DNA of 64,000 nucleotides. Origin: Candidatus Latescibacterota bacterium (GTDB lineage Bacteria > Latescibacterota > UBA2968 > UBA8231). The stretch covers positions 4,480,001 through 4,544,000 of the forward strand of contig CBDETK010000013.1 of the NCBI GenBank assembly GCA_965242865.1. Reading direction: 5' to 3'. Of this stretch, positions 547-10,281 are shown piece after piece (within the stretch, counting starts at the first letter, position 1; each line of letters opens with the position of its first letter). The position numbers were made by a program, and so were the translations under genes. Below the pieces are notes generated by a model. The model had not been told where the DNA came from and did no database searches. It was given only the letters and a program-made list of their open reading frames with translations.

Positions 547-3500
547 ATGCTGACCAAATTCCTCCTAGCCGCCACCGCGGCCTTCTTTCTGCTATCGGTC
601 ACGGCCTTTGATCCGGCCACCATTTCGCGCTGGATGGAGCGGGCCATCGGCTGGGAGCCGTTGCGCGAATCTCCGCCCACGGCCGAAGCATCCTCCCTGC
701 GCGACGCGGTCGCGCAAATAAACGCGGCCGCGCTAGAACGCCACCTCCGCGTCCTCACCGCAGATTCGTCCCGCGTCACCGGCTATGCCGGGGCCGCCCG
801 CGCCGCTCGCTACATCGAAGGGGAATTCCGCCGCCTCGGCCTGCAAGTCACCCGCGAATTGTTCCCGGTTTCCGTGCCCCGCGATCGCGGCGGGCGCCTG
901 CGCGTGGTCGGCGCGGACAAAACCATCCCCATCTACGGATTGTGGCCCAACCACGTGCGGCCCCCCTCCCTGCCACCGGGCGGCATCTCCGGTCCCCTCA
1001 TTGACTTGGGGCGCGGTAGCTTAGCCGAGATGGATGGGAAGCGGTTGGCCGGCAGCATCGCGCTGATGGGCTTTGGCTCGGGCAACGCCCACGTCCAAGC
1101 GCGGGCCTTGGGCGCCCAAGCCATTTTGCTGTACGACGATGGCCGCGTCACGCGCAGCGAGGCCGCGGAAAAGTTCCTCCAAGTGCCTGTGGACATCCCG
1201 CGCTTTTGGCTGGCAGGGGCCGACGCAAAAGCCCTGCGGCCGCAAGCGCGCACCGGCGACGTTGAGGTGCATCTGCAAGCGCAGCTGGACTGGGAGCAGG
1301 TCCAAGCGAGCAACCTATTCGCCGTCCTGCCGGGCTTGGCCGAGGACATGCCGCGCGGTCAGCGCCGCGAAATCGAGCAGTGGAGCGACCAAATCATCGT
1401 CCTGCAAGCACACTACGACGCCATCTCGGTGGTCCCCGCGCTGGCCCCGGGCGCCGAGAGCGCGACCGGCATGGCTGCGTTGCTCGAAATCGCGCGGTTG
1501 CTCGTCGCCGAGGGCACCCGCTACACCGTGCTCTTTTTGGCCACCCCCGGGCACTTTCAGGGCTTGGCCGGCGTCAACGATTTCCTCTACCGCCACGCAC
1601 GCGAAAGCGCGCATTTCCGCGACCAAATCCCGCCGGCCGAGCGCATTGACTTCCGCCTCTTCGTGGGGCTCGACTTGGCCAGCCACAGCCCCCGGGTCGG
1701 CGCCTTCACCATGGGCACGTTCTACAACTCGGCGTGGCGCAACGACGACTATCAAAAGAACCTGATGGCGCACTATGCCGCGCGCTTTGGCCGCTACAAC
1801 CGCGAGATTTTTGCGGACTCCACGCGCTACCAAGACGCCATTGCCCCGCAGAAGCGGGTGTGGAAAAACTTCATGCCCGTGCGGCTGGCCCTCGACAGCG
1901 AGGCCGCGGCCTTTGTGGGCAAGGAAGCCCTCTCCTTTGTCACGCCCAACCAACTGCGCCAGCGCGTGGATACGCCCCTCGACCGGCTCGAATTCGTCGC
2001 GCTCGACAACCTCGCCGAACAGACCCGCACCATCGCCGGGCTGCTGCTCAAGGCCGCTTCCGACCCGGACTTTTTCAACGACACCAAGCTGACCCTGCGC
2101 GATTGGGGGCACCGCCTAGAGGGCCACATCTACTGGTTTGACCGCGACGTAAACTTTGCCGTGCCCAAAGCACCCGTGCCCAACGCGCTCGTCACCTATC
2201 TCCAGCCCGGCCCCAACTCGGTGGCCGGCGTCCGCACCCTGATGGTCGCGCACGGCGACGAAACCGGCTACTTCGAGTTCGACATCGTGCGCAACCGCTT
2301 TGCCAACCGGATTCAAGCCTTTGAACTCAACGAATACGGCCGCATCGTCTCCGCGCCCGACCTCGGGGAGGAAGGCGACAAAACCTACCCAAGCACCCAG
2401 CCTTATGGGTGGTGGGAAAACCGCATGTTGCAGGTCTTGTTTCGCTGCCGCGCCCTGAGCTTTCTCGAGGTGGTCGATCCGCGCTATTTATCGGCCATGG
2501 ACCGCGTCAATGTCCTCGGCCCCAACGACGCGCCCCCGCGCTCCTTTTCCCTCAACTACATCGAAAACCAGAGCGCGGCGCAGGACCGGGTGGTGCAGGC
2601 CGGCGTGGTGTTTGCCGAGCCGGGCACTCGCGTCAAAATCCTCGCCGGCGAGCGCGCCTTTGGCGGCGAGAGCGCGCTCGCCGGGGTGCGCTACCTGCTC
2701 ACCAACGCGGACTCCGCCCTGTTCGCCGACCTCGACCCGGCCGGCGTTGATCTGGCGACCATTGAGCGGGCGCAGGGCGCAGGCTTCCCGATCGAACAGG
2801 GCCTCATCCCCTACCCGGCCCTGCAGGCGGCCCGCGACCTCTGGATCATCGACGAGGCGCGGATCAAGCAGATGGTGCGCCACGGCATCGTCCTCGAACA
2901 ACTCCAAGCCATGCACGAGCAAGCGCGGGAGGCCCTGCTCGAAGCGAGCGACAAACTCGCGGCGTTTGACTACACAGGCTACCAACGCGCCGTGCGCCGC
3001 GCCCTCGGGCTAGAGGCCCGCATCTACCCGCAAGTCAAGGCCACCGCCAACGACGCCGTCCGCGCCGTCATTTTCTACTTCGCGCTCCTGTTGCCCTTTG
3101 CCTTCTTCTGCGAGCGGTTCTTCTTGGGCTTCCCGGATGTGCGGCGGCAAATCGCCGGCTTTGTCGGCATCTTCATCTTGGTGTTTTTGATCCTGCGCTT
3201 CGTCCATCCGGCCTTTAAGTTGAGCACCTCGCCGTACATCATCTTCCTCGCGTTTGTCATCCTCGCCTTGGGCGTCCTCGTAATTTTCATCGTCGTCTCG
3301 CGCTTCAAGGGGCTTTTGCAACGGCGCAAGGGCGCGGCCGCCGGCATGCACGAGACCGACGTGGGGCGCGTGGCCGCGGGGTTTGCGGCCGTGCTGCTGG
3401 GCATTTCCAACTTGAGCAAGCGCCGCCTGCGCACCGCGCTGACGGCCGCGACCCTGACCTTTTTGACCTTTACCGTCAATTCCTTTACCTCGGTCAAGTC

Positions 3501-5136
3501 CAGCCTCGACTTCTATCGCCTGCCGCGCGACACCGCTCCCCGGTACGAGGGGGGCCTCATCCGCGACCGCGCTTGGCGCGGCATGCAGGATTCCATCTTG
3601 GACTATGTGCAGAGTGCTTTCGGCGATCGCGCCTTGGTCGTGCCGCGCGCCTGGTACTTGTCGCCGGTCGAATCCGAACGGGCGTACATCGACTTTGCCG
3701 TGCCCGCGACCGGCGCGGCCAGTTTTGTCCACGGCTTGGTGGGCCTGCAGCCGGCCGAAGCCCGCGTGACGGGCCTCGACGCGCACGTCTCAGCCGGTCG
3801 CTTTTTTGCGGCCGGCGACGACAAGGTCGTCATCTTGCCCGACAGCCTCGCCGCGCTCGTCGGCATTGGGGCCGAGCAGGTGGGCACCGCAACCATCGCG
3901 CTCTACGGCGAGGAGTACCGAGTCATCGGCCTGTTCGACAGCGCGGCCCTGAAAGAAGTGGTCGATCTCGACGGCGAGCGGCTAACGCCCGTCGATACGG
4001 TCAAAGACGCTGGGCTGATCGCACGCGAGAGCACTGAAGACCCGCGCACCTTGGCCGCGACCGCGGTTGAGACCTTCAACCACCTCGACGTGGTCAACAC
4101 CCTCTTCTTGCCCTACCCGCGCGTCCGCGCCATGGAGGGCCGCTTGCGCTCCATCGCCATTGCCGCGGACGCGGACGACCCGCAATTCGTCCGGCGCGTG
4201 GAGTCCTTTATGTCGCGGGTGGCCCTGACCCTGTTCGTCGGCCAAGGCGACCGCGTCGTGGCGTACAGCTCAATCGGCTCCACCGAAATAAGCGGGGCCG
4301 GCCAGCTTTTGGTGCCCGTGATCATTGCCGCCCTGATCGTGCTCAATACCATGATGGGGGCCGTGTACGAGCGCGTGCGCGAAATCGGCATCTACAGCGT
4401 GGTCGGCTTGGCCCCCAGCCACATCGGCCTGCTGTTTTTGGCCGAGTCCACGGTCTTTGCCACCTTTGGCGCGGTGGTCGGGTACGCCTTGGGCCAAATC
4501 GCCCATCTGTTCATGCTACAATACGGGCTGCTCGCCGGCCTGACCCTCAACTACTCGTCGCTTTCGGCGGTGTGGGCTACGGTCGTGGTCATCGGCACGG
4601 TCTATTTATCGACCTTGTATCCAGCGCGCTTGGCCGCCAACCTAGCGGTCCCCGACGTGACGCGGCAATGGCAATTCCCCCCGCCGGTGGGCGATCACTG
4701 GCGCTTTGACTTTCCCTTTACGGTCGGCGGGGCCGAGGTGCCGAGCATGTACGCGTATCTCAAGTCGGTCTTTGCCGCGTACGGCGAAGGCTCCATCGGC
4801 GACTTCATCGCCCGCGACGTCGAGCTATCCATCGCCACCGACGGGCCGGAGCCATCCTACGCCATTGCCATGCGTACTTGGCTGGCCCCCTACGACCTAG
4901 GGATCAGCCAAAAGGTGCGCTTGCAGGCGACGCCCACCGGCGAGCACCGCATCTACAAGATCGAGACCCACATCGAGCGTCTCAGCGGGGATGTGGCCTC
5001 GTGGCAGCGCATGAATCGCAAATTCCTCAATGTGCTGCGCAAGCGATTCTTGGTGTGGCGCACCTTGTCGCCCGGGATCCGCCAAGGGTATCGGGACGCG
5101 GCCGAACAGGCGTTTGCCGAGGCGGGGCCGCCGTAG
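547..5136 (+). CDS. M28-peptidase-like (degenerate) / FtsX-MacB-like permease fusion protein
   Basis: N-terminal signal, PA-like region, M28-like QAHYD...APGAESATG segment. C-terminal NLSKRRLRTALT and LNTMMGAVYERVREIGIYSVVG FtsX motifs, with several TM blocks. Confidence 0.85.
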   Translation: MLTKFLLAATAAFFLLSVTAFDPATISRWMERAIGWEPLRESPPTAEASSLRDAVAQINAAALERHLRVLTADSSRVTGYAGAARAARYIEGEFRRLGLQVTRELFPVSVPRDRGGRLRVVGADKTIPIYGLWPNHVRPPSLPPGGISGPLIDLGRGSLAEMDGKRLAGSIALMGFGSGNAHVQARALGAQAILLYDDGRVTRSEAAEKFLQVPVDIPRFWLAGADAKALRPQARTGDVEVHLQAQLDWEQVQASNLFAVLPGLAEDMPRGQRREIEQWSDQIIVLQAHYDAISVVPALAPGAESATGMAALLEIARLLVAEGTRYTVLFLATPGHFQGLAGVNDFLYRHARESAHFRDQIPPAERIDFRLFVGLDLASHSPRVGAFTMGTFYNSAWRNDDYQKNLMAHYAARFGRYNREIFADSTRYQDAIAPQKRVWKNFMPVRLALDSEAAAFVGKEALSFVTPNQLRQRVDTPLDRLEFVALDNLAEQTRTIAGLLLKAASDPDFFNDTKLTLRDWGHRLEGHIYWFDRDVNFAVPKAPVPNALVTYLQPGPNSVAGVRTLMVAHGDETGYFEFDIVRNRFANRIQAFELNEYGRIVSAPDLGEEGDKTYPSTQPYGWWENRMLQVLFRCRALSFLEVVDPRYLSAMDRVNVLGPNDAPPRSFSLNYIENQSAAQDRVVQAGVVFAEPGTRVKILAGERAFGGESALAGVRYLLTNADSALFADLDPAGVDLATIERAQGAGFPIEQGLIPYPALQAARDLWIIDEARIKQMVRHGIVLEQLQAMHEQAREALLEASDKLAAFDYTGYQRAVRRALGLEARIYPQVKATANDAVRAVIFYFALLLPFAFFCERFFLGFPDVRRQIAGFVGIFILVFLILRFVHPAFKLSTSPYIIFLAFVILALGVLVIFIVVSRFKGLLQRRKGAAAGMHETDVGRVAAGFAAVLLGISNLSKRRLRTALTAATLTFLTFTVNSFTSVKSSLDFYRLPRDTAPRYEGGLIRDRAWRGMQDSILDYVQSAFGDRALVVPRAWYLSPVESERAYIDFAVPATGAASFVHGLVGLQPAEARVTGLDAHVSAGRFFAAGDDKVVILPDSLAALVGIGAEQVGTATIALYGEEYRVIGLFDSAALKEVVDLDGERLTPVDTVKDAGLIARESTEDPRTLAATAVETFNHLDVVNTLFLPYPRVRAMEGRLRSIAIAADADDPQFVRRVESFMSRVALTLFVGQGDRVVAYSSIGSTEISGAGQLLVPVIIAALIVLNTMMGAVYERVREIGIYSVVGLAPSHIGLLFLAESTVFATFGAVVGYALGQIAHLFMLQYGLLAGLTLNYSSLSAVWATVVVIGTVYLSTLYPARLAANLAVPDVTRQWQFPPPVGDHWRFDFPFTVGGAEVPSMYAYLKSVFAAYGEGSIGDFIARDVELSIATDGPEPSYAIAMRTWLAPYDLGISQKVRLQATPTGEHRIYKIETHIERLSGDVASWQRMNRKFLNVLRKRFLVWRTLSPGIRQGYRDAAEQAFAEAGPP

Positions 5137-5144
5137 GAAAAGCT

Positions 5145-6128
5145 GTGCGCGAAAAGCCGCCCTATACCATCTCATCCGATATTCTCTTTCGCATTGAACA
5201 AATCGGCGAAGCGATTGGCCGGGCCGAGGCCGCGGGCCTTGCGCAGGATTTGCGCTTGCGACGCATCAATCGCATCCGCACGATTTGTGGCTCGCTCGCC
5301 ATTGAAGGCAACATCCTCAGCGAGGAGCAAATCTCCACGATTCTCGACGGCAAGCCCGTCGTCGCCCCCCCGAGAGACATTCGGGAAGTCCGCAACGCCA
5401 TTGCGGCCTACGATCAATACCAGCAATGCAGCCCCGCCAGCGAGGCCGACCTGTTGCGCCTGCACGAAATTTTGCTGACCGGCCTATTGGACGCGCCCGG
5501 CCCATATCGCCGCACTGGCGTAGGCGTTATGGGCGGCGGCGAAATCCATCACGTCGGCCCGCCCGCCCAGCGCGTACCGCAACTCATGGCGAATTTGTTG
5601 GCGTGGCTGGGCAGCACCGATGAGCATCCGCTCATTGCCAGTTCGGTCTTCCATTACGAGCTCGAGTTCATTCACCCCTTTGAGGACGGCAACGGTCGGA
5701 TGGGGCGGCTCTGGCAGACTCTGATTCTGACCCGCTGGAAACCCCTGTTTGCCCACATCCCGGTGGAGAGTATGGTTCACATTCGCCAAGGCGACTACTA
5801 CGAAGCGATCAGGCAGAGTTCGACCGCCGGCGAGAGTACGCCGTTTATTGGGTTCATGCAGGACATTATTCTGGAGGCCCTCCAGTCTTCCGCAATAAGC
5901 GACCAAGTAAGCGACCAAGTAGCGCGGCTACTCAGGGCCCTGCGGACCGGCCCGAAAACCGCCGCCGAACTCATGGCGGCTCTGGGGCTGTCGCATCGTC
6001 CTACATTCCGCAAAAACTACATTCGCCCGGCCCTAGCCGCCGGGCTGGTGGAAATGACCCGCCCGGGATCGCCCACCGCGAAAAACCAAAAGTATCGGCT
6101 CACTACACGCGGACGGGAGCTGCGCTGA
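5145..6128 (+). CDS. Fic family protein with C-terminal HTH
   Basis: HPFEDGNGRMGR Fic motif and GSLAIEGN inhibitory motif. GTG start at 5145 follows AGGAA; the longer ORF track start overlaps the upstream gene. Confidence 0.9.
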   Translation: MREKPPYTISSDILFRIEQIGEAIGRAEAAGLAQDLRLRRINRIRTICGSLAIEGNILSEEQISTILDGKPVVAPPRDIREVRNAIAAYDQYQQCSPASEADLLRLHEILLTGLLDAPGPYRRTGVGVMGGGEIHHVGPPAQRVPQLMANLLAWLGSTDEHPLIASSVFHYELEFIHPFEDGNGRMGRLWQTLILTRWKPLFAHIPVESMVHIRQGDYYEAIRQSSTAGESTPFIGFMQDIILEALQSSAISDQVSDQVARLLRALRTGPKTAAELMAALGLSHRPTFRKNYIRPALAAGLVEMTRPGSPTAKNQKYRLTTRGRELR

Positions 6129-6143
6129 GATCTGTCTGCGCCC

Positions 6144-6196
6144 TTGACAAAGCCCCGCCACCAAAATAGGCTTAACTTAACTTAGCTATCGGAGAG
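6144..6196 (+). promoter_or_regulatory. sigma70-type promoter with AT-rich operator-like repeats and RBS
   Basis: TTGACA (6144-6149), 17 bp spacer, TAGGCT (6167-6172), then TAACTTAACTTAGCTA and GGAGAG RBS before ATG 6203. Confidence 0.65.
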
Positions 6197-6202
6197 TTCG
6201 CC

Positions 6203-6283
6203 ATGGTGAACATGCCCGAGGTCAAATCGCAGCTTTCGCGCCAAGGGAAGCTACTCGCCATAATTGCCGCCATCTCTCGTTAA
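6203..6283 (+). pseudogene. N-terminal stub of a Phd/YefM (VapB-type) antitoxin
   Basis: Translates MVNMPEVKSQLSRQGKLLAIIAAISR*, resembling the Phd N-terminus (VNxHEAKxxLSRL...GKPVAxL). Good RBS. Confidence 0.6.
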
Positions 6284-6358
6284 CGGAGCATCTCCGATTG
6301 ACCTGCCAAAGTGCCAATGGCATTTTAGGCTACAAATCCCTCACTCAATAGCGAAAGG

Positions 6359-7123
6359 ATGCTACTCATGCCAGCCACAGCACGTCAAATGGTTCAACCT
6401 ATCTCAGCCACAATGGACACCGTAACAGCAACAGTGTTTAGTGATCGTCGTACTATTCAAGCTCCCGACATCGCTTTGCCCAAAGCTCTAAAGCCCAACA
6501 CTCGTGTGAAGATGGACGGATTAAAGTTTCTCGGTTTACTACCCTTAGAAAGCATCCCAGTGGCTTTTTTCGATCCACAATATCGAGGAGTGCTTGATAA
6601 GCTGTCCTATGGAAATGAAGGCCAGCAACGTGGAAAACGGCGGTACGCGCTCATGCAAATGAGCGAGGCGGATATTACCAAATTCATACAGGGGATTGAC
6701 CGTGCGCTTATCCCATCCGGCCACTTGTTTTTGTGGATGGATAAATTTCACCTCTGTCAGGGTTTCAAGAATTGGATTGACTCGACGGACTTAGATGTTG
6801 TGGATCTAATCTCTTGGGACAAGGGCAAGCTCGGTATGGGCTACCGCTCGCGCCGAATTACGGAATACTGCGTCGTTCTGCAAAAGCAACCCCGTAAGGC
6901 AAAAGGGGTTTGGAAAGTTCACAACATTCCCGATACATGGCGCGAAAAAGTGGTTAAGACAGTGCATCCACACACAAAGCCCATAGACCTACAAGGCGAA
7001 TTAATTTGTGCGGTATCTAATGAGGGGGATTATGTGATTGACCCTGCGGCTGGTTCCTTCTCAGTAATGGAGGCAGCCCAGTTACGCGGCCGCAACTTCT
7101 TAGGGTGTGATTTGGAGGGATAA
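6359..7123 (+). CDS. site-specific DNA methyltransferase (amino-MTase, beta order)
   Basis: Catalytic-type FFDPQY motif near the N-terminus, HPHTKP, and SAM-binding VIDPAAGSFS near the C-terminus. Lower GC than the flanks. Confidence 0.9.
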   Translation: MLLMPATARQMVQPISATMDTVTATVFSDRRTIQAPDIALPKALKPNTRVKMDGLKFLGLLPLESIPVAFFDPQYRGVLDKLSYGNEGQQRGKRRYALMQMSEADITKFIQGIDRALIPSGHLFLWMDKFHLCQGFKNWIDSTDLDVVDLISWDKGKLGMGYRSRRITEYCVVLQKQPRKAKGVWKVHNIPDTWREKVVKTVHPHTKPIDLQGELICAVSNEGDYVIDPAAGSFSVMEAAQLRGRNFLGCDLEG

Positions 7124-7124
7124 T

Positions 7125-7910
7125 ATGGCACTTATCCGTAACGCCGCGCCCAAGAACGTCTCGGGGGCTTATGTGCGGCTGTTTGATAACCACGAACTAG
7201 GAACATTAGTCAGTAAGTTGCAGTCCACCGTCATCTCTTCAGGCAGCGAACTAGAAAAAATTATCACGAAGCAGGTGGAGAACATCCCCGATCTGGATGC
7301 GTTCCTAGAGCAAGAAATTATGCCTGAAGGAGTCTATATGGCCTGCAAGCAACAGATGAAGCAATCGAAGACCTTGGATTTCTCAGAGGCCGAGCCAGAC
7401 TTTATGATTTTCAAGCGGCGCGAAAATCGACAACGCTGCCATATCGTAGAGTTAAAGGATGGCCATGTCTTTGATACTAAAAAAGCCAGCGCGGAACGAC
7501 AAGCCATGCACGGCTTTACTGAGCGAAATGCTCTACATCTACCGTACGTGGTATCATGCCATTTCTGTGCATTCAATCAGGAAGACAAAGAGGCAATCCT
7601 AACAGGTTTCAAGAACAAGATAACCCGAGACGAAGTCATGACAGGCCGCGAGTTTTGTGAGTTGCTGGAAATTGACTACCACCAGATTGTCTCCAGCCGA
7701 TTAAGCGAGGGAGCAGCCAATCTTGACTATTTTTGCCGTGAGTTAGTCAAAATACCAGCCGTCCGAGAACGCTTGGGGCGGCTGATTAAAGAGGAACGTC
7801 AGCCTGGTGGGCTAGAGGGAAAAATTTGGCTGTCTCCAGACTTCGATGAGCCCGATGAAGAACTCATAGAACTGATTGAGAACTCGAAAATTTTCCCAGA
7901 TGAGGATTAG
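7125..7910 (+). CDS. putative type II restriction endonuclease (PD-(D/E)XK) with VapB-like C-terminal tail
   Basis: EPDFMIF...HIVELKDG motif, starting 1 nt after the MTase stop. The last ~39 aa (ERQPGGLEGKIWLSPDFDEPDEEL...) resemble an antitoxin C-terminus. Confidence 0.75.
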   Translation: MALIRNAAPKNVSGAYVRLFDNHELGTLVSKLQSTVISSGSELEKIITKQVENIPDLDAFLEQEIMPEGVYMACKQQMKQSKTLDFSEAEPDFMIFKRRENRQRCHIVELKDGHVFDTKKASAERQAMHGFTERNALHLPYVVSCHFCAFNQEDKEAILTGFKNKITRDEVMTGREFCELLEIDYHQIVSSRLSEGAANLDYFCRELVKIPAVRERLGRLIKEERQPGGLEGKIWLSPDFDEPDEELIELIENSKIFPDED

Positions 7911-7912
7911 CC

Positions 7913-8293
7913 ATGTCGCGGCTACTGTTGGATACCCACCCCCTTTTATGGTGGCTATCCGATGTGGAGCAACTGGCCGAAGATGCCCGGGCCGCAATTG
8001 CCGACCCGCACAATGACGTTTTCGTCAGTGCCATCACCGGGTGGGAAATCGCGGTCAAGCAAGCCAAGGGTCGCTTGGTCGCTCCAGACAATCTGTCGAT
8101 GTTGATTGAGCAAAAGGGCTTTACCCACCTTCCGCTGACGTTCCAGCACGCCGAGCAGGCCGGCCGCCTCCCGTTGCACCACCGGGATCCATTCGATCGG
8201 TTCCTGATTGCCCAAGCTCAGGCCGAAGGGCTGATCCTCGTGACTCGGGATGGCCTCATTCGGCGATACGACGTGGCCATCATGAAGGTTTGA
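7913..8293 (+). CDS. vapC: VapC family PIN-domain toxin
   Basis: LLLDTHPLLWW, SAITGWEIAVK, HRDPFDRFLIAQA and LVTRD: the conserved acidic PIN residues are intact. Confidence 0.92.
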   Translation: MSRLLLDTHPLLWWLSDVEQLAEDARAAIADPHNDVFVSAITGWEIAVKQAKGRLVAPDNLSMLIEQKGFTHLPLTFQHAEQAGRLPLHHRDPFDRFLIAQAQAEGLILVTRDGLIRRYDVAIMKV

Positions 8294-8370
8294 GCCCGTG
8301 AAGCGTCGCCAGCAGATCGAGGAGGCATGAGGCCAATCCTCAACGCGCTTCGCGCCAGCGCACCGCTAGC

Positions 8371-10281
8371 ATGACCGCACGCGCCTTCCTCATCGGCTTG
8401 GGCCTCGTGGTCCTGATCAACATTGGGGCCCCGTATAGCATGTTCATCCTCAAGTCCTCGCAATGGGCGATCAGCTACCTGCCCCTGAGCGTAGTCTTTC
8501 TCTTTACCGCCTTAGTCTTTCTCAACGCCACGGCCAAGTCGCTGCTCAAGGTGCGCGGCCTGAACACCAGCGAGCTCGGCCTCGTCTTTACCATGTCCTT
8601 GGTCGGGGCCTCGATTCCCACTTGGGGCACCTCCACGTACATGATCGCGGTCATCGCCGCCCCCCAGTACTTTGCCTCGCCCGAAAACCAGTGGCAGAGC
8701 AAGGTCGTGCAGTACATCGAGGAATGGCTCGTGCCCAACGACGCGATTGCCCTCAAGTGGTTTTACAACGGCCTGCCCGCCGGCGAATCCATCCCTTGGG
8801 GCGCGTGGATCGGGCCGCTTTTTTGGTGGACCAGCTTGGTCATGGCCATCTTCTTTTTGTGTCAGTGCATGGTCGCCGCCCTGCGCAAGCAGTGGGTCGA
8901 ATACGAGCGCCTGCCCTTCGCCCTGATGGCATTGCCCCAACAACTCATCGCCCCACCGCGCGGCTCCAACTGGCCCGGTTTTGTGCGCCAAAAGGCGTTC
9001 TGGTTCGGCTTTGCCCTGCCCTTCTGCATGGTTATGTGGAACGTGGTCACGTACTTTACCCCGGCCTTTCCGCCCATCCCCCGCGACCTGTCCGACCCCA
9101 TCCGCATTGGCCGCGAATTTCCCGCTATTCACACCAACGTCAACTGGGCCATCGTCGGCTTTGCGTACTTCGTCAACCTTGACGTGTCGTTCAGCTTGTG
9201 GTTCTTCACCGCGCTCACCATGCTGCAACAGGGCCTGTTCAATCGCTTCGGCTACACCTTGGCTGGCCGCGATGTGTACACCCTCGGGCATCCTGGGATC
9301 GGCTGGCAGTCTTTCGGTGCTCTAATCGCCCTCGTCGGCGGCATGCTGTGGATGGCGCGCGGGCACCTCGGCGCGATCTGGCGCAAAGCGGTGCATAACG
9401 ATGCGGCCATCGACGACGCCGACGAGCTGATGTCCTACCGGATGATCGTCTTTGGCGGCGGGCTGGCCCTGCTCTACATCGCCTTTTGGCTGTGGCGGGC
9501 CGGCATGAACCCGCCCACGGTCGCGCTCTTCATCTTAGCGACCTTGGTTCTCTACGTCGGCATTACGCGCATCATCATGGAGGGCGGCTTGCTCTTTAGC
9601 CGCGCCCCGCTCGTCGGCCAGACCTTTGTCGGCTACGCGCTCGGGCCGCACGCCACCGCGCAGAGCAACATCGCCCTGGGGCTGTCCTACGGCTGGCACC
9701 ACGAGCTCAAGGGCTTTTTCATGGTCGCCGCGGCCAACAGCGCCAAAGTGGCCGGCTCCATCCGCGGCAACCGCCGCTATCTGAGCTTCTACCTCCTCCT
9801 CTCGGCGCTGGTAGCCCTGGTCGTCTCCATGGCCTTCGCGCTCTACATGGGCTACTCCTTTGGCGCGTACAACTACGGGGGGTGGATCTTCGGCACCGGC
9901 TCGCAAGTGCCCTACGTGGAAAGCCTGCGGAAAATCGATCTCAAGGCCCCGGATTGGACGCGGTTGGGCCACCTCGTCAGCGGCGCGGGCGCGATGGGGT
10001 TGTTGACCTTTATGCGCTACCGCTTCTCGTGGTGGCCCCTGCACCCGATTGGCATGCCGGTCGGCATCTGCTCCTACCCCATGACCATTATCGTCTTTTC
10101 GATCTTCGTCTCTTGGCTGGCCAAATGGGCCATTATGCGGTCGGGCGGCATCGGCCTCTACCACCGCGCCCAACCCTTCTTCATCGGCCTCATCCTCGGG
10201 TACTTCACCGCGATTGGCCTGTCCTTTTGCATCGACATGATTTGGTTCCCCGGGCAAGGGCACCCCCTGTACGGAAACTAG
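8371..10281 (+). CDS. polytopic membrane protein, DUF6785/DUF6784-like (OPT-related putative transporter)
   Basis: Many TM helices. Motifs LRKQWVEYERLPFAL, NLDVSFSLWFF and RFSWWPLHPIG are typical of this family as I recall it. Confidence 0.7.
   Translation: MTARAFLIGLGLVVLINIGAPYSMFILKSSQWAISYLPLSVVFLFTALVFLNATAKSLLKVRGLNTSELGLVFTMSLVGASIPTWGTSTYMIAVIAAPQYFASPENQWQSKVVQYIEEWLVPNDAIALKWFYNGLPAGESIPWGAWIGPLFWWTSLVMAIFFLCQCMVAALRKQWVEYERLPFALMALPQQLIAPPRGSNWPGFVRQKAFWFGFALPFCMVMWNVVTYFTPAFPPIPRDLSDPIRIGREFPAIHTNVNWAIVGFAYFVNLDVSFSLWFFTALTMLQQGLFNRFGYTLAGRDVYTLGHPGIGWQSFGALIALVGGMLWMARGHLGAIWRKAVHNDAAIDDADELMSYRMIVFGGGLALLYIAFWLWRAGMNPPTVALFILATLVLYVGITRIIMEGGLLFSRAPLVGQTFVGYALGPHATAQSNIALGLSYGWHHELKGFFMVAAANSAKVAGSIRGNRRYLSFYLLLSALVALVVSMAFALYMGYSFGAYNYGGWIFGTGSQVPYVESLRKIDLKAPDWTRLGHLVSGAGAMGLLTFMRYRFSWWPLHPIGMPVGICSYPMTIIVFSIFVSWLAKWAIMRSGGIGLYHRAQPFFIGLILGYFTAIGLSFCIDMIWFPGQGHPLYGN

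Follow-up and report, generated by a model that had tools for sequence, protein, structure and literature searches.

What holds a toxin in check once the gene for its antitoxin has been split in two? This question is raised by a stretch of 64,000 nucleotides from Candidatus Latescibacterota bacterium (assembly GCA_965242865.1, contig CBDETK010000013.1, positions 4,480,001-4,544,000 of the forward strand; hereafter the window), in which the two genes of a type II restriction–modification (RM) system stand within vapB, the antitoxin gene of a VapBC toxin–antitoxin (TA) module. A canonical VapBC antitoxin gene encodes a DNA-binding N-terminus and a toxin-binding C-terminus; here, the N-terminal domain is cut off after approximately 17 codons and the C-terminus is found inside the open reading frame (ORF) of the restriction nuclease. 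An earlier reading of the same sequence (the original prediction) proposed that the nuclease has taken over the role of the antitoxin and that the locus works as a guard or addiction system. In this study, the structural part of this account, namely an RM fragment inside vapB, a nuclease in frame with the VapB tail and an intact vapC, was judged by sequence comparison to be almost certainly correct. The chimera of nuclease and tail probably serves as the cell's antitoxin, with the tail neutralizing VapC; a probability of roughly 55% is assigned to this reading, based on the homology of the tail, a complex prediction and analogous chimeras elsewhere.

A Fic-domain gene (5130-6128) and a membrane-protein gene (8371-10281) enclose four ORFs on the + strand, and the earlier state of this interval is preserved in related genomes. 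The segment 5600-8900 was used to search the window's own genome and 40 related genomes, 24 of which belong to the same genus. Among the matches listed, at least 14 of the 24 same-genus genomes matched 5600-6250 and 7790-8900 with 80-82 nucleotides in between, where the window has approximately 1,539. The DNA of the insert itself was matched, again among the matches listed, only in the window's own genome out of the 41 searched. The insert so delimited spans approximately 6251-7789 (∼1.54 kb), with a left junction at 6250-6253 and a right junction at 7789-7791, and stands in place of vapB codons ∼20-45. An intact VapB of 83-85 residues was found in all six relatives whose site was read, and an intact VapC in five. 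In the relative G019, an 84-residue VapB is followed after two nucleotides by VapC, and this VapB resembles PhdYeFM in its N-terminus and DUF2281 and NCBIfam TA_VapB in its C-terminus, with each match below threshold. Pairs of DUF2281 and PIN proteins are tabulated for Synechocystis (PMC4963859). The GC content of the insert is 0.483, compared with 0.59-0.62 in the flanking genes, and the nuclease gene is present in a single copy in the window's genome; by its low GC content, its lack of listed matches in relatives and its single-copy nuclease, the insert is foreign to the locus. The proposal that an RM cassette sits inside vapB is thus borne out by the empty sites and intact antitoxins of the relatives. 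The vapBC module itself varies within the genus: at the site in G023 (L083) it is missing, with ∼90 nucleotides between the Fic gene and the downstream gene, vapC is truncated in G007 and G020, and G004, G011 and G022, in which the downstream flank alone was matched among the matches listed, may also lack the module.

Both halves of the interrupted antitoxin gene can be recognized. To the left of the insert, a 26-residue ORF at 6203-6283 had been described as a Phd-like stub. Comparison with the intact VapB of the relatives assigns only its first 16-17 codons (6203-6252) to vapB, matching codons 1 and 4-19, whereas the remaining codons are a transposase remnant read out of frame. This 17-codon stub carries a two-codon deletion and three replacements (H>P, A>V and L>Q) at positions that are invariant in six relatives, and on this comparison the DNA-binding N-terminal domain of VapB is destroyed. 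To the right, DNA homology to the relatives, at 87-94%, begins again at 7790. Because the nuclease lacks its own last 4-5 codons and stop, its frame continues into VapB residues 46-84, and its final 39 residues (223-261; 7791-7907, followed by a TAG codon that ends at 7910) are by homology the 3' portion of vapB. Their identity with residues 42-83 of the VapB of a relative is 79% (E 1.4e-17), and they match the family models DUF2281 (4.9e-4) and NCBIfam TA_VapB (1.4e-4), in each case below threshold. By this evidence, the tail is homologous to the toxin-binding C-terminus of DUF2281/VapB antitoxins, as the original prediction had recognized. Of the columns that are invariant in six relatives, two are changed in the tail, both conservatively (M>I and D>E). 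In contrast to the stub, the tail thus appears conserved. The GC content of the tail (0.463) is uninformative on its origin because the same part is just as AT-rich in the relatives. In a model of the nuclease–tail protein, the predicted local distance difference test score (pLDDT) is below 50 at residues 230-243 and 253-261, and the tail is predicted to be disordered on the nuclease surface except for one short helix at 245-252. Antitoxin tails are usually disordered.

The genes within the insert form a recognizable RM pair. The methyltransferase (METHYLTRANSFERASE) is encoded by an ORF at 6359-7123, with a likelier start at 6368, and is assigned to the N6_N4 family of type II DNA methyltransferases (Pfam PF01555, 52.5 bits, 8.2e-14, with a cutoff of 26.7; PADLOC MTase_II, 1.9e-79). 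The nuclease ORF extends from 7107 to 7910, with an ATG at 7125 and a stop at 7908-7910, and encodes 261 residues, of which residues 1-222 (7125-7790) are the nuclease core, lacking the final 4-5 codons and the stop of its family. The core showed no Pfam domain; residues 5-217 match PADLOC REase_II (1e-46) over positions 5-223 of the 227-position profile. Residues P91-D92 and E109-L110-K111 are invariant in 26 aligned homologues. The predicted model has a mean pLDDT of 83.9 for residues 1-225, and its best fold match is the type II enzyme EcoO109I, with a middling value (Z 7.8, root-mean-square deviation 6.5 over 190 aligned residues). A Foldseek search of the model against the PDB gave nothing at E<=0.001, the best match again being EcoO109I at 3.8e-3, and neither the nuclease (best E, 1) nor VapC had a useful match in a sequence search of the PDB. 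The two genes are adjacent on the same strand, and the pair is kept in 65 of 67 related loci. With this adjacency, the methyltransferase family, the nuclease family and the PD...(D/E)xK residues all present, the two genes are, at the sequence level, a type II RM pair, in agreement with the methyltransferase and PD-(D/E)XK nuclease named earlier.

The tail does not belong to the nuclease family. The nuclease has 690 relatives at E<=0.001, and 116 of the 120 listed homologues are 219-240 residues long; native homologues stop shortly past a conserved RLxxL(L/I) motif. An antitoxin-like tail was found in none of 63 loci from species-representative genomes, most of which are sponge-associated metagenome-assembled genomes. 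A tail native to the family is ruled out by these lengths, by the tail-less loci and by the length of the PADLOC profile, and the alignment of homologue ends that had been suggested as a check gave the expected outcome.

The toxin gene, vapC (7913-8293, 126 residues; Pfam PIN, PF01850, 5.1e-19), begins two nucleotides past the TAG that closes the nuclease frame (7908-7910) and keeps its native ribosome-binding site, GAGGA, seven nucleotides upstream. Its product is 84-90% identical to VapC of five relatives. Across 66 sequences, there is no variation at the acidic residues D7, E45 and D95 and almost none at D92 and D113, and all are kept here, so that the description of vapC as an intact PIN gene stands. 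In other assemblies, VapB and VapC are found as single ORFs of 211 and 230 residues (P0184 and P0187) with garbled middles; these are probably frameshifted or decaying copies of the module.

The left end of the insert indicates where the RM pair came from. In a third frame, 6250-6351 is 45% identical over 40 residues to the C-terminus of the transposase of locus L033 (tblastn, E 3.4e-9 in a tiny database), and four further transposases match the same segment in that database. The segment represents the last ∼33 codons of an IS1595-family transposase, ending with TAG at 6349-6351. The IS1595 family has members that carry passenger genes. Among 67 loci examined, an IS1595 transposase or its remnant stands directly before the methyltransferase in nine loci of other genomes and in 13 loci of a Ruegeria genome (L016, L018-L025, L052, L054, L060 and L068). 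At L016, the methyltransferase–nuclease pair is carried by a 2.75-kb element (2227-4974) with perfect 26-nucleotide terminal inverted repeats and a 341-residue transposase (Pfam DDE_Tnp_IS1595, 5.1e-42, with the IS1595 zinc ribbon), and the cargo consists of the type II pair and a small 81-residue ORF. The full unit is present in eight of the 13 compared loci with an identity of at least 99.8%; such multiplication of an RM system by a transposase inside one genome is unusual. In these related loci, the transposase precedes the pair and the right inverted repeat follows it, whereas the window holds a truncated internal fragment without ends.

Inverted repeats or a target duplication flanking the insert were looked for and none were found; with the transposase also truncated to ∼33 codons, transposition of an intact element was rejected. 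The resemblance of 'RLGRL' at the nuclease end to 'RLGKL' in the VapB N-terminus was likewise dismissed as a target duplication: the DNA is by eye alike at ∼11 of 18 positions, and RLxxL is native in the nuclease homologues. As judged from these alignments, the insert is an internal fragment of an RM-carrying IS1595-family element, cut within the transposase gene on the left and 4-5 codons before the nuclease stop on the right. The lack of terminal repeats and of a duplication therefore points to illegitimate recombination or later trimming, and the insertion looks like a recombination accident rather than a designed module.

The original prediction had named an assembly chimera as a possible source of error. 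Sponge metagenomes are among the sequencing runs that hold the window's sequence, none of the listed runs being an RNA data set, and contigs of four runs (X3, X4, X5 and X6) were compared over 5900-8500, with X5 giving no cover at 7640-8236. Contigs of X3, with no differences to the window, span 5900-7241 and 7212-8500. In X6, which comes from another study and is ∼1.7% divergent, contigs cover 5904-6309, including the left junction, 6300-7117, and 7112-8178, which comprises the nuclease, the tail and most of vapC. The contigs of X3 and X6, which stem from two further studies, run across both junctions and rule out an assembly chimera.

Whether the tail still binds VapC was approached by complex prediction. 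A 47-residue C-terminal piece of the nuclease–tail protein together with VapC scored 0.42, compared with 0.00 for the best of three controls; the contacts of the runs agreed to at least 91%, and the partner pLDDT was at least 65. In calibration, the mark was reached by 58 of 80 solved complexes and by two of 110 mismatched pairs. The prediction lends weak support to binding of VapC by the tail, and the pass may be due to the likeness of the pair to solved VapBC-like complexes.

The antitoxin role is further favored by the conservation and predicted disorder of the tail, by the full-length vapC with its acidic residues and ribosome-binding site, and by similar chimeras elsewhere. Three proteins of 272-277 residues (P0003, P0004 and P0005) have nuclease cores that are 82% identical to that of the window and carry another C-terminal extension, which ends with the C-terminal 36 residues of FitA-like ribbon-helix-helix antitoxins. 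A search with the extension gave 59 short proteins of ∼80-95 residues with the same ending; several match Pfam FitA-like_RHH, and one is named a plasmid stability protein by one source. FitA-type antitoxins pair with PIN toxins. Between P0003 and P0004, 206 of 220 residues are identical in the nuclease core, four of 20 in the linker and 36 of 36 in the tail. The difference in the linker could be explained by rapid divergence of a former DNA-binding helix, by a compensated frameshift or by two separate junctions; in each of these scenarios, the aligned sequences have the FitA-like tail kept in frame and unchanged. In addition, two proteins of the Fic type that is encoded upstream of vapB in the window, P0185 (378 residues) and P0186 (370 residues, with 20 member sequences), are fused to VapB from residue ∼38 to the end, and deletions have therefore presumably removed the intergenic region and the DNA-binding domain of VapB. 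An antitoxin tail was thus met on a restriction nuclease in two cases, the two tails being unrelated to each other, and on a Fic protein in one. A metagenome scan with P0004 returned four loci, none of which was fused, and a class-wide search of 132 genomes with P0185 did not find the Fic–tail fusion; G076 was rejected as a candidate, the sequence beyond its stop codon being unrelated.

Several observations weigh against an antitoxin role of the chimera. Firstly, the score of the complex prediction is low: at 0.60 or below, the mark was reached by seven of the 80 solved complexes and by both of the passing mismatched pairs. Secondly, the tail differs from that of the relative L005 by no synonymous and six non-synonymous changes, in which no constraint after the fusion is visible, and from those of the other five relatives by 6-8 synonymous and 5-9 non-synonymous changes, a spread like that among the relatives themselves. 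The ratio of non-synonymous to synonymous substitution rates (dN/dS) was computed for the tail and the stub, with too few sites to decide. Thirdly, the recurrence of chimeras is biased: protein searches find in-frame fusions only, and recurrence alone is for this reason no proof of selection. Fourthly, the genome holds a paralogous VapB-like ORF that might cross-neutralize VapC, which is taken up below. Finally, a form of the locus without vapC exists. In X4, a run from another sample, 7899 is followed directly by 8282 in a contig of depth 343, so that 382 nucleotides (7900-8281), almost exactly vapC, are skipped, whereas contigs that keep vapC have a depth of ∼5. The joint shows four nucleotides of microhomology, and its shorter side is 26 nucleotides, less than the 30 below which the tool advises caution. 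This allele is predicted to encode 264 residues ending ...FPDEGLSP. A database protein of 264 residues that is 98% identical to the nuclease–tail protein of the window and ends ...FPDEGLNP (P0001) was considered as an independent tail-bearing homologue and discarded, since it is what the vapC-deleted allele of this locus encodes. The form without vapC is thus real and turns up repeatedly in assemblies. The majority allele of X4 has lost the toxin but kept the tail, and the toxin is therefore dispensable.

Some of these observations would agree with a decaying locus, in which VapC was already harmless or silent when the RM fragment disrupted vapB, the in-frame join arose by chance (one in three) and the tail is without function. 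Such decay is an unlikely but serious explanation. It would account for the vapC deletion in X4, for the substitution counts in the tail, for the degenerating stub and for the losses in sister genomes, where vapBC is gone (G023) or vapC is truncated (G007 and G020). However, VapC of the window is full length with all of its conserved acidic residues, and its dN/dS relative to five relatives is 0.16-0.37, although most of this divergence is older than the insertion. Furthermore, vapC is intact in the divergent strain of X6, which shares the fusion, and the invariant tail behind a divergent linker in the independent nuclease–FitA chimeras is hard to explain without selection on the tail.

The same vapC-deleted allele bears on the guard or addiction system of the original prediction. 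According to this explanation, selection keeps the nuclease–tail protein together with VapC, and loss of the nuclease, proteolysis or phage inhibition releases the RNase, which stabilizes the RM system or aborts infection. All support for the fusion as an antitoxin is shared by this explanation, the locus adjoins a SoFic-like defense gene, and a second chimera of nuclease and antitoxin tail is present in the same nuclease lineage. Nevertheless, an allele that keeps the fusion but lacks vapC dominates one sample, what was inserted is a truncated piece of an IS1595-borne RM unit, and the fused architecture was met in none of the 63 loci from species-representative genomes. Nor is there an evident way for a phage that inhibits the nuclease to release a tail joined to it covalently. 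An adaptive device of this type is accordingly doubtful, and this part of the original prediction found no direct support.

A third explanation, that VapC is active, that a paralogous antitoxin from another locus of the genome holds it and that the nuclease tail is irrelevant, is suggested by the VapB-like ORF mentioned above (contig 13, 2,320,169-2,320,381; tblastn identity 44-46%). This ORF adjoins a vapC-like remnant of the C-terminal 68 codons, the two together lying at L076:1501-1894, and is effectively an orphan antitoxin. The tail of the paralogue differs, however, at many positions that are conserved among the six relatives, and cross-talk between VapBC paralogues is generally reported to be rare; cross-neutralization is thus considered quite improbable. 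Near the paralogue, a 364-residue ORF on the opposite strand (2011-3105 of L076) contains an SPPY motif and appears methyltransferase-like by eye.

If the chimera acts as the antitoxin, the following history may be proposed. A fragment of an RM transposon would have recombined into vapB at two non-homologous or microhomologous joints, replacing the middle of the gene. Loss of the translated tail would have released VapC and killed the recombinant, and the survivors would be those in which the nuclease was welded to the tail, an outcome of survivorship and not of design. The native vapBC promoter, now without its repressor domain, would transcribe the stub, the methyltransferase, the nuclease–tail fusion and vapC as one operon, and the disordered tail on the nuclease would bind and neutralize VapC. 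The RM genes would thereby be coupled to the toxin, and loss of the nuclease gene would free VapC, as a side effect rather than a selected design. The arrangement is likely to be transitional: once the toxin is lost, nothing would hold the tail, and one sampled population is already without vapC.

The promoter assumed here lies in a native region (6144-6202) that is nearly identical in the relative G019. The original prediction named a promoter and a ribosome-binding site, and a perfect TTGACA (6144-6149) and a GGAG are indeed present, whereas the -10 element is weak, and a consensus scan of 5900-8500 for promoters and terminators did not call the vapBC promoter and found no terminators.

The locus shares its promoter, tail, PIN toxin and two-nucleotide spacing with the canonical VapBC modules of the relatives, whose antitoxin has a Phd/YefM-like N-terminus and a DUF2281/VapB C-terminus. 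In contrast to these, the DNA-binding domain is gone, the tail is attached to a 222-residue nuclease and two extra genes stand inside the antitoxin gene. A latent RNase in an RM locus is also known from the EcoprrI type I system, in which the restriction proteins reportedly keep the anticodon nuclease PrrC inactive. The likeness is one of logic alone, with no homology expected and with unrelated proteins and origin: here, a type II antitoxin tail is covalently fused, the toxin is a PIN protein and the arrangement arose by insertion into a TA operon. Mobile RM units have been described to insert into genes and operon-like clusters and to create gene fusions (Furuta et al., 2010; PMC2853133). 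As in that paper, a transposase-linked RM pair stands here in the coding region of an operon-like cluster and has made a fusion gene; in contrast, the gene hit here encodes an antitoxin, whose neutralizing part is preserved in the fusion, and a search of the text of that paper gave no mention of toxins. Modular antitoxins exchange neutralizing and DNA-binding parts (Ernits et al., 2023; PMC10440598, available part), and the present case resembles them in that a neutralizing element is joined to an unrelated domain. It differs from the antitoxins presented there in that the partner is an active-looking defense enzyme, that the capture is recent and that the ancestral state is visible in sister genomes. 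In the literature searched at the level of titles and the beginnings of abstracts, no paper was found that describes an antitoxin tail on a restriction enzyme. Each part is ordinary on its own, whether the type II RM pair, the VapBC module or the IS1595-family element; what appears to be new is the combination of a restriction enzyme with an antitoxin tail.

The main value of the locus is that of an example of antitoxin domain capture caught in the act. The ancestral intact vapBC, the chimera and the vapC-deleted step are found side by side, and natural records of this kind, which show how an antitoxin of several domains could come about, are rare. Should the nuclease–tail protein neutralize VapC, the VapB tail of ∼39 residues would be sufficient and portable, and an RM system would be physically coupled to an RNase toxin. 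A wider, rather tentative possibility is that TA operons act as traps for invading or neighboring genes: damage to the front of an antitoxin gene would be survived if the tail stays translated, so that the tail is welded to the upstream ORF and chimeric antitoxins are made, some of them perhaps retained for the captured genes as fail-safe or addiction devices. A chimera of this type would link the amount and integrity of a defense enzyme to a latent RNase, and the appearance of the same logic with another antitoxin family and with a Fic protein may reflect a general rule on the damage that TA loci tolerate.

The upstream Fic gene, on the + strand, is native and lies outside the insert; it matches Pfam Fic (3.7e-21) and Fic-like_C (9.1e-28) and PADLOC SoFic (7.4e-41) and is syntenic in the relatives. 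Together, the SoFic-like gene, vapBC and the RM pair make up a small cluster of defense-type genes. Further upstream, a 1,529-residue ORF (547-5136) has many predicted membrane-spanning stretches, and its end overlaps the start region of the Fic gene.

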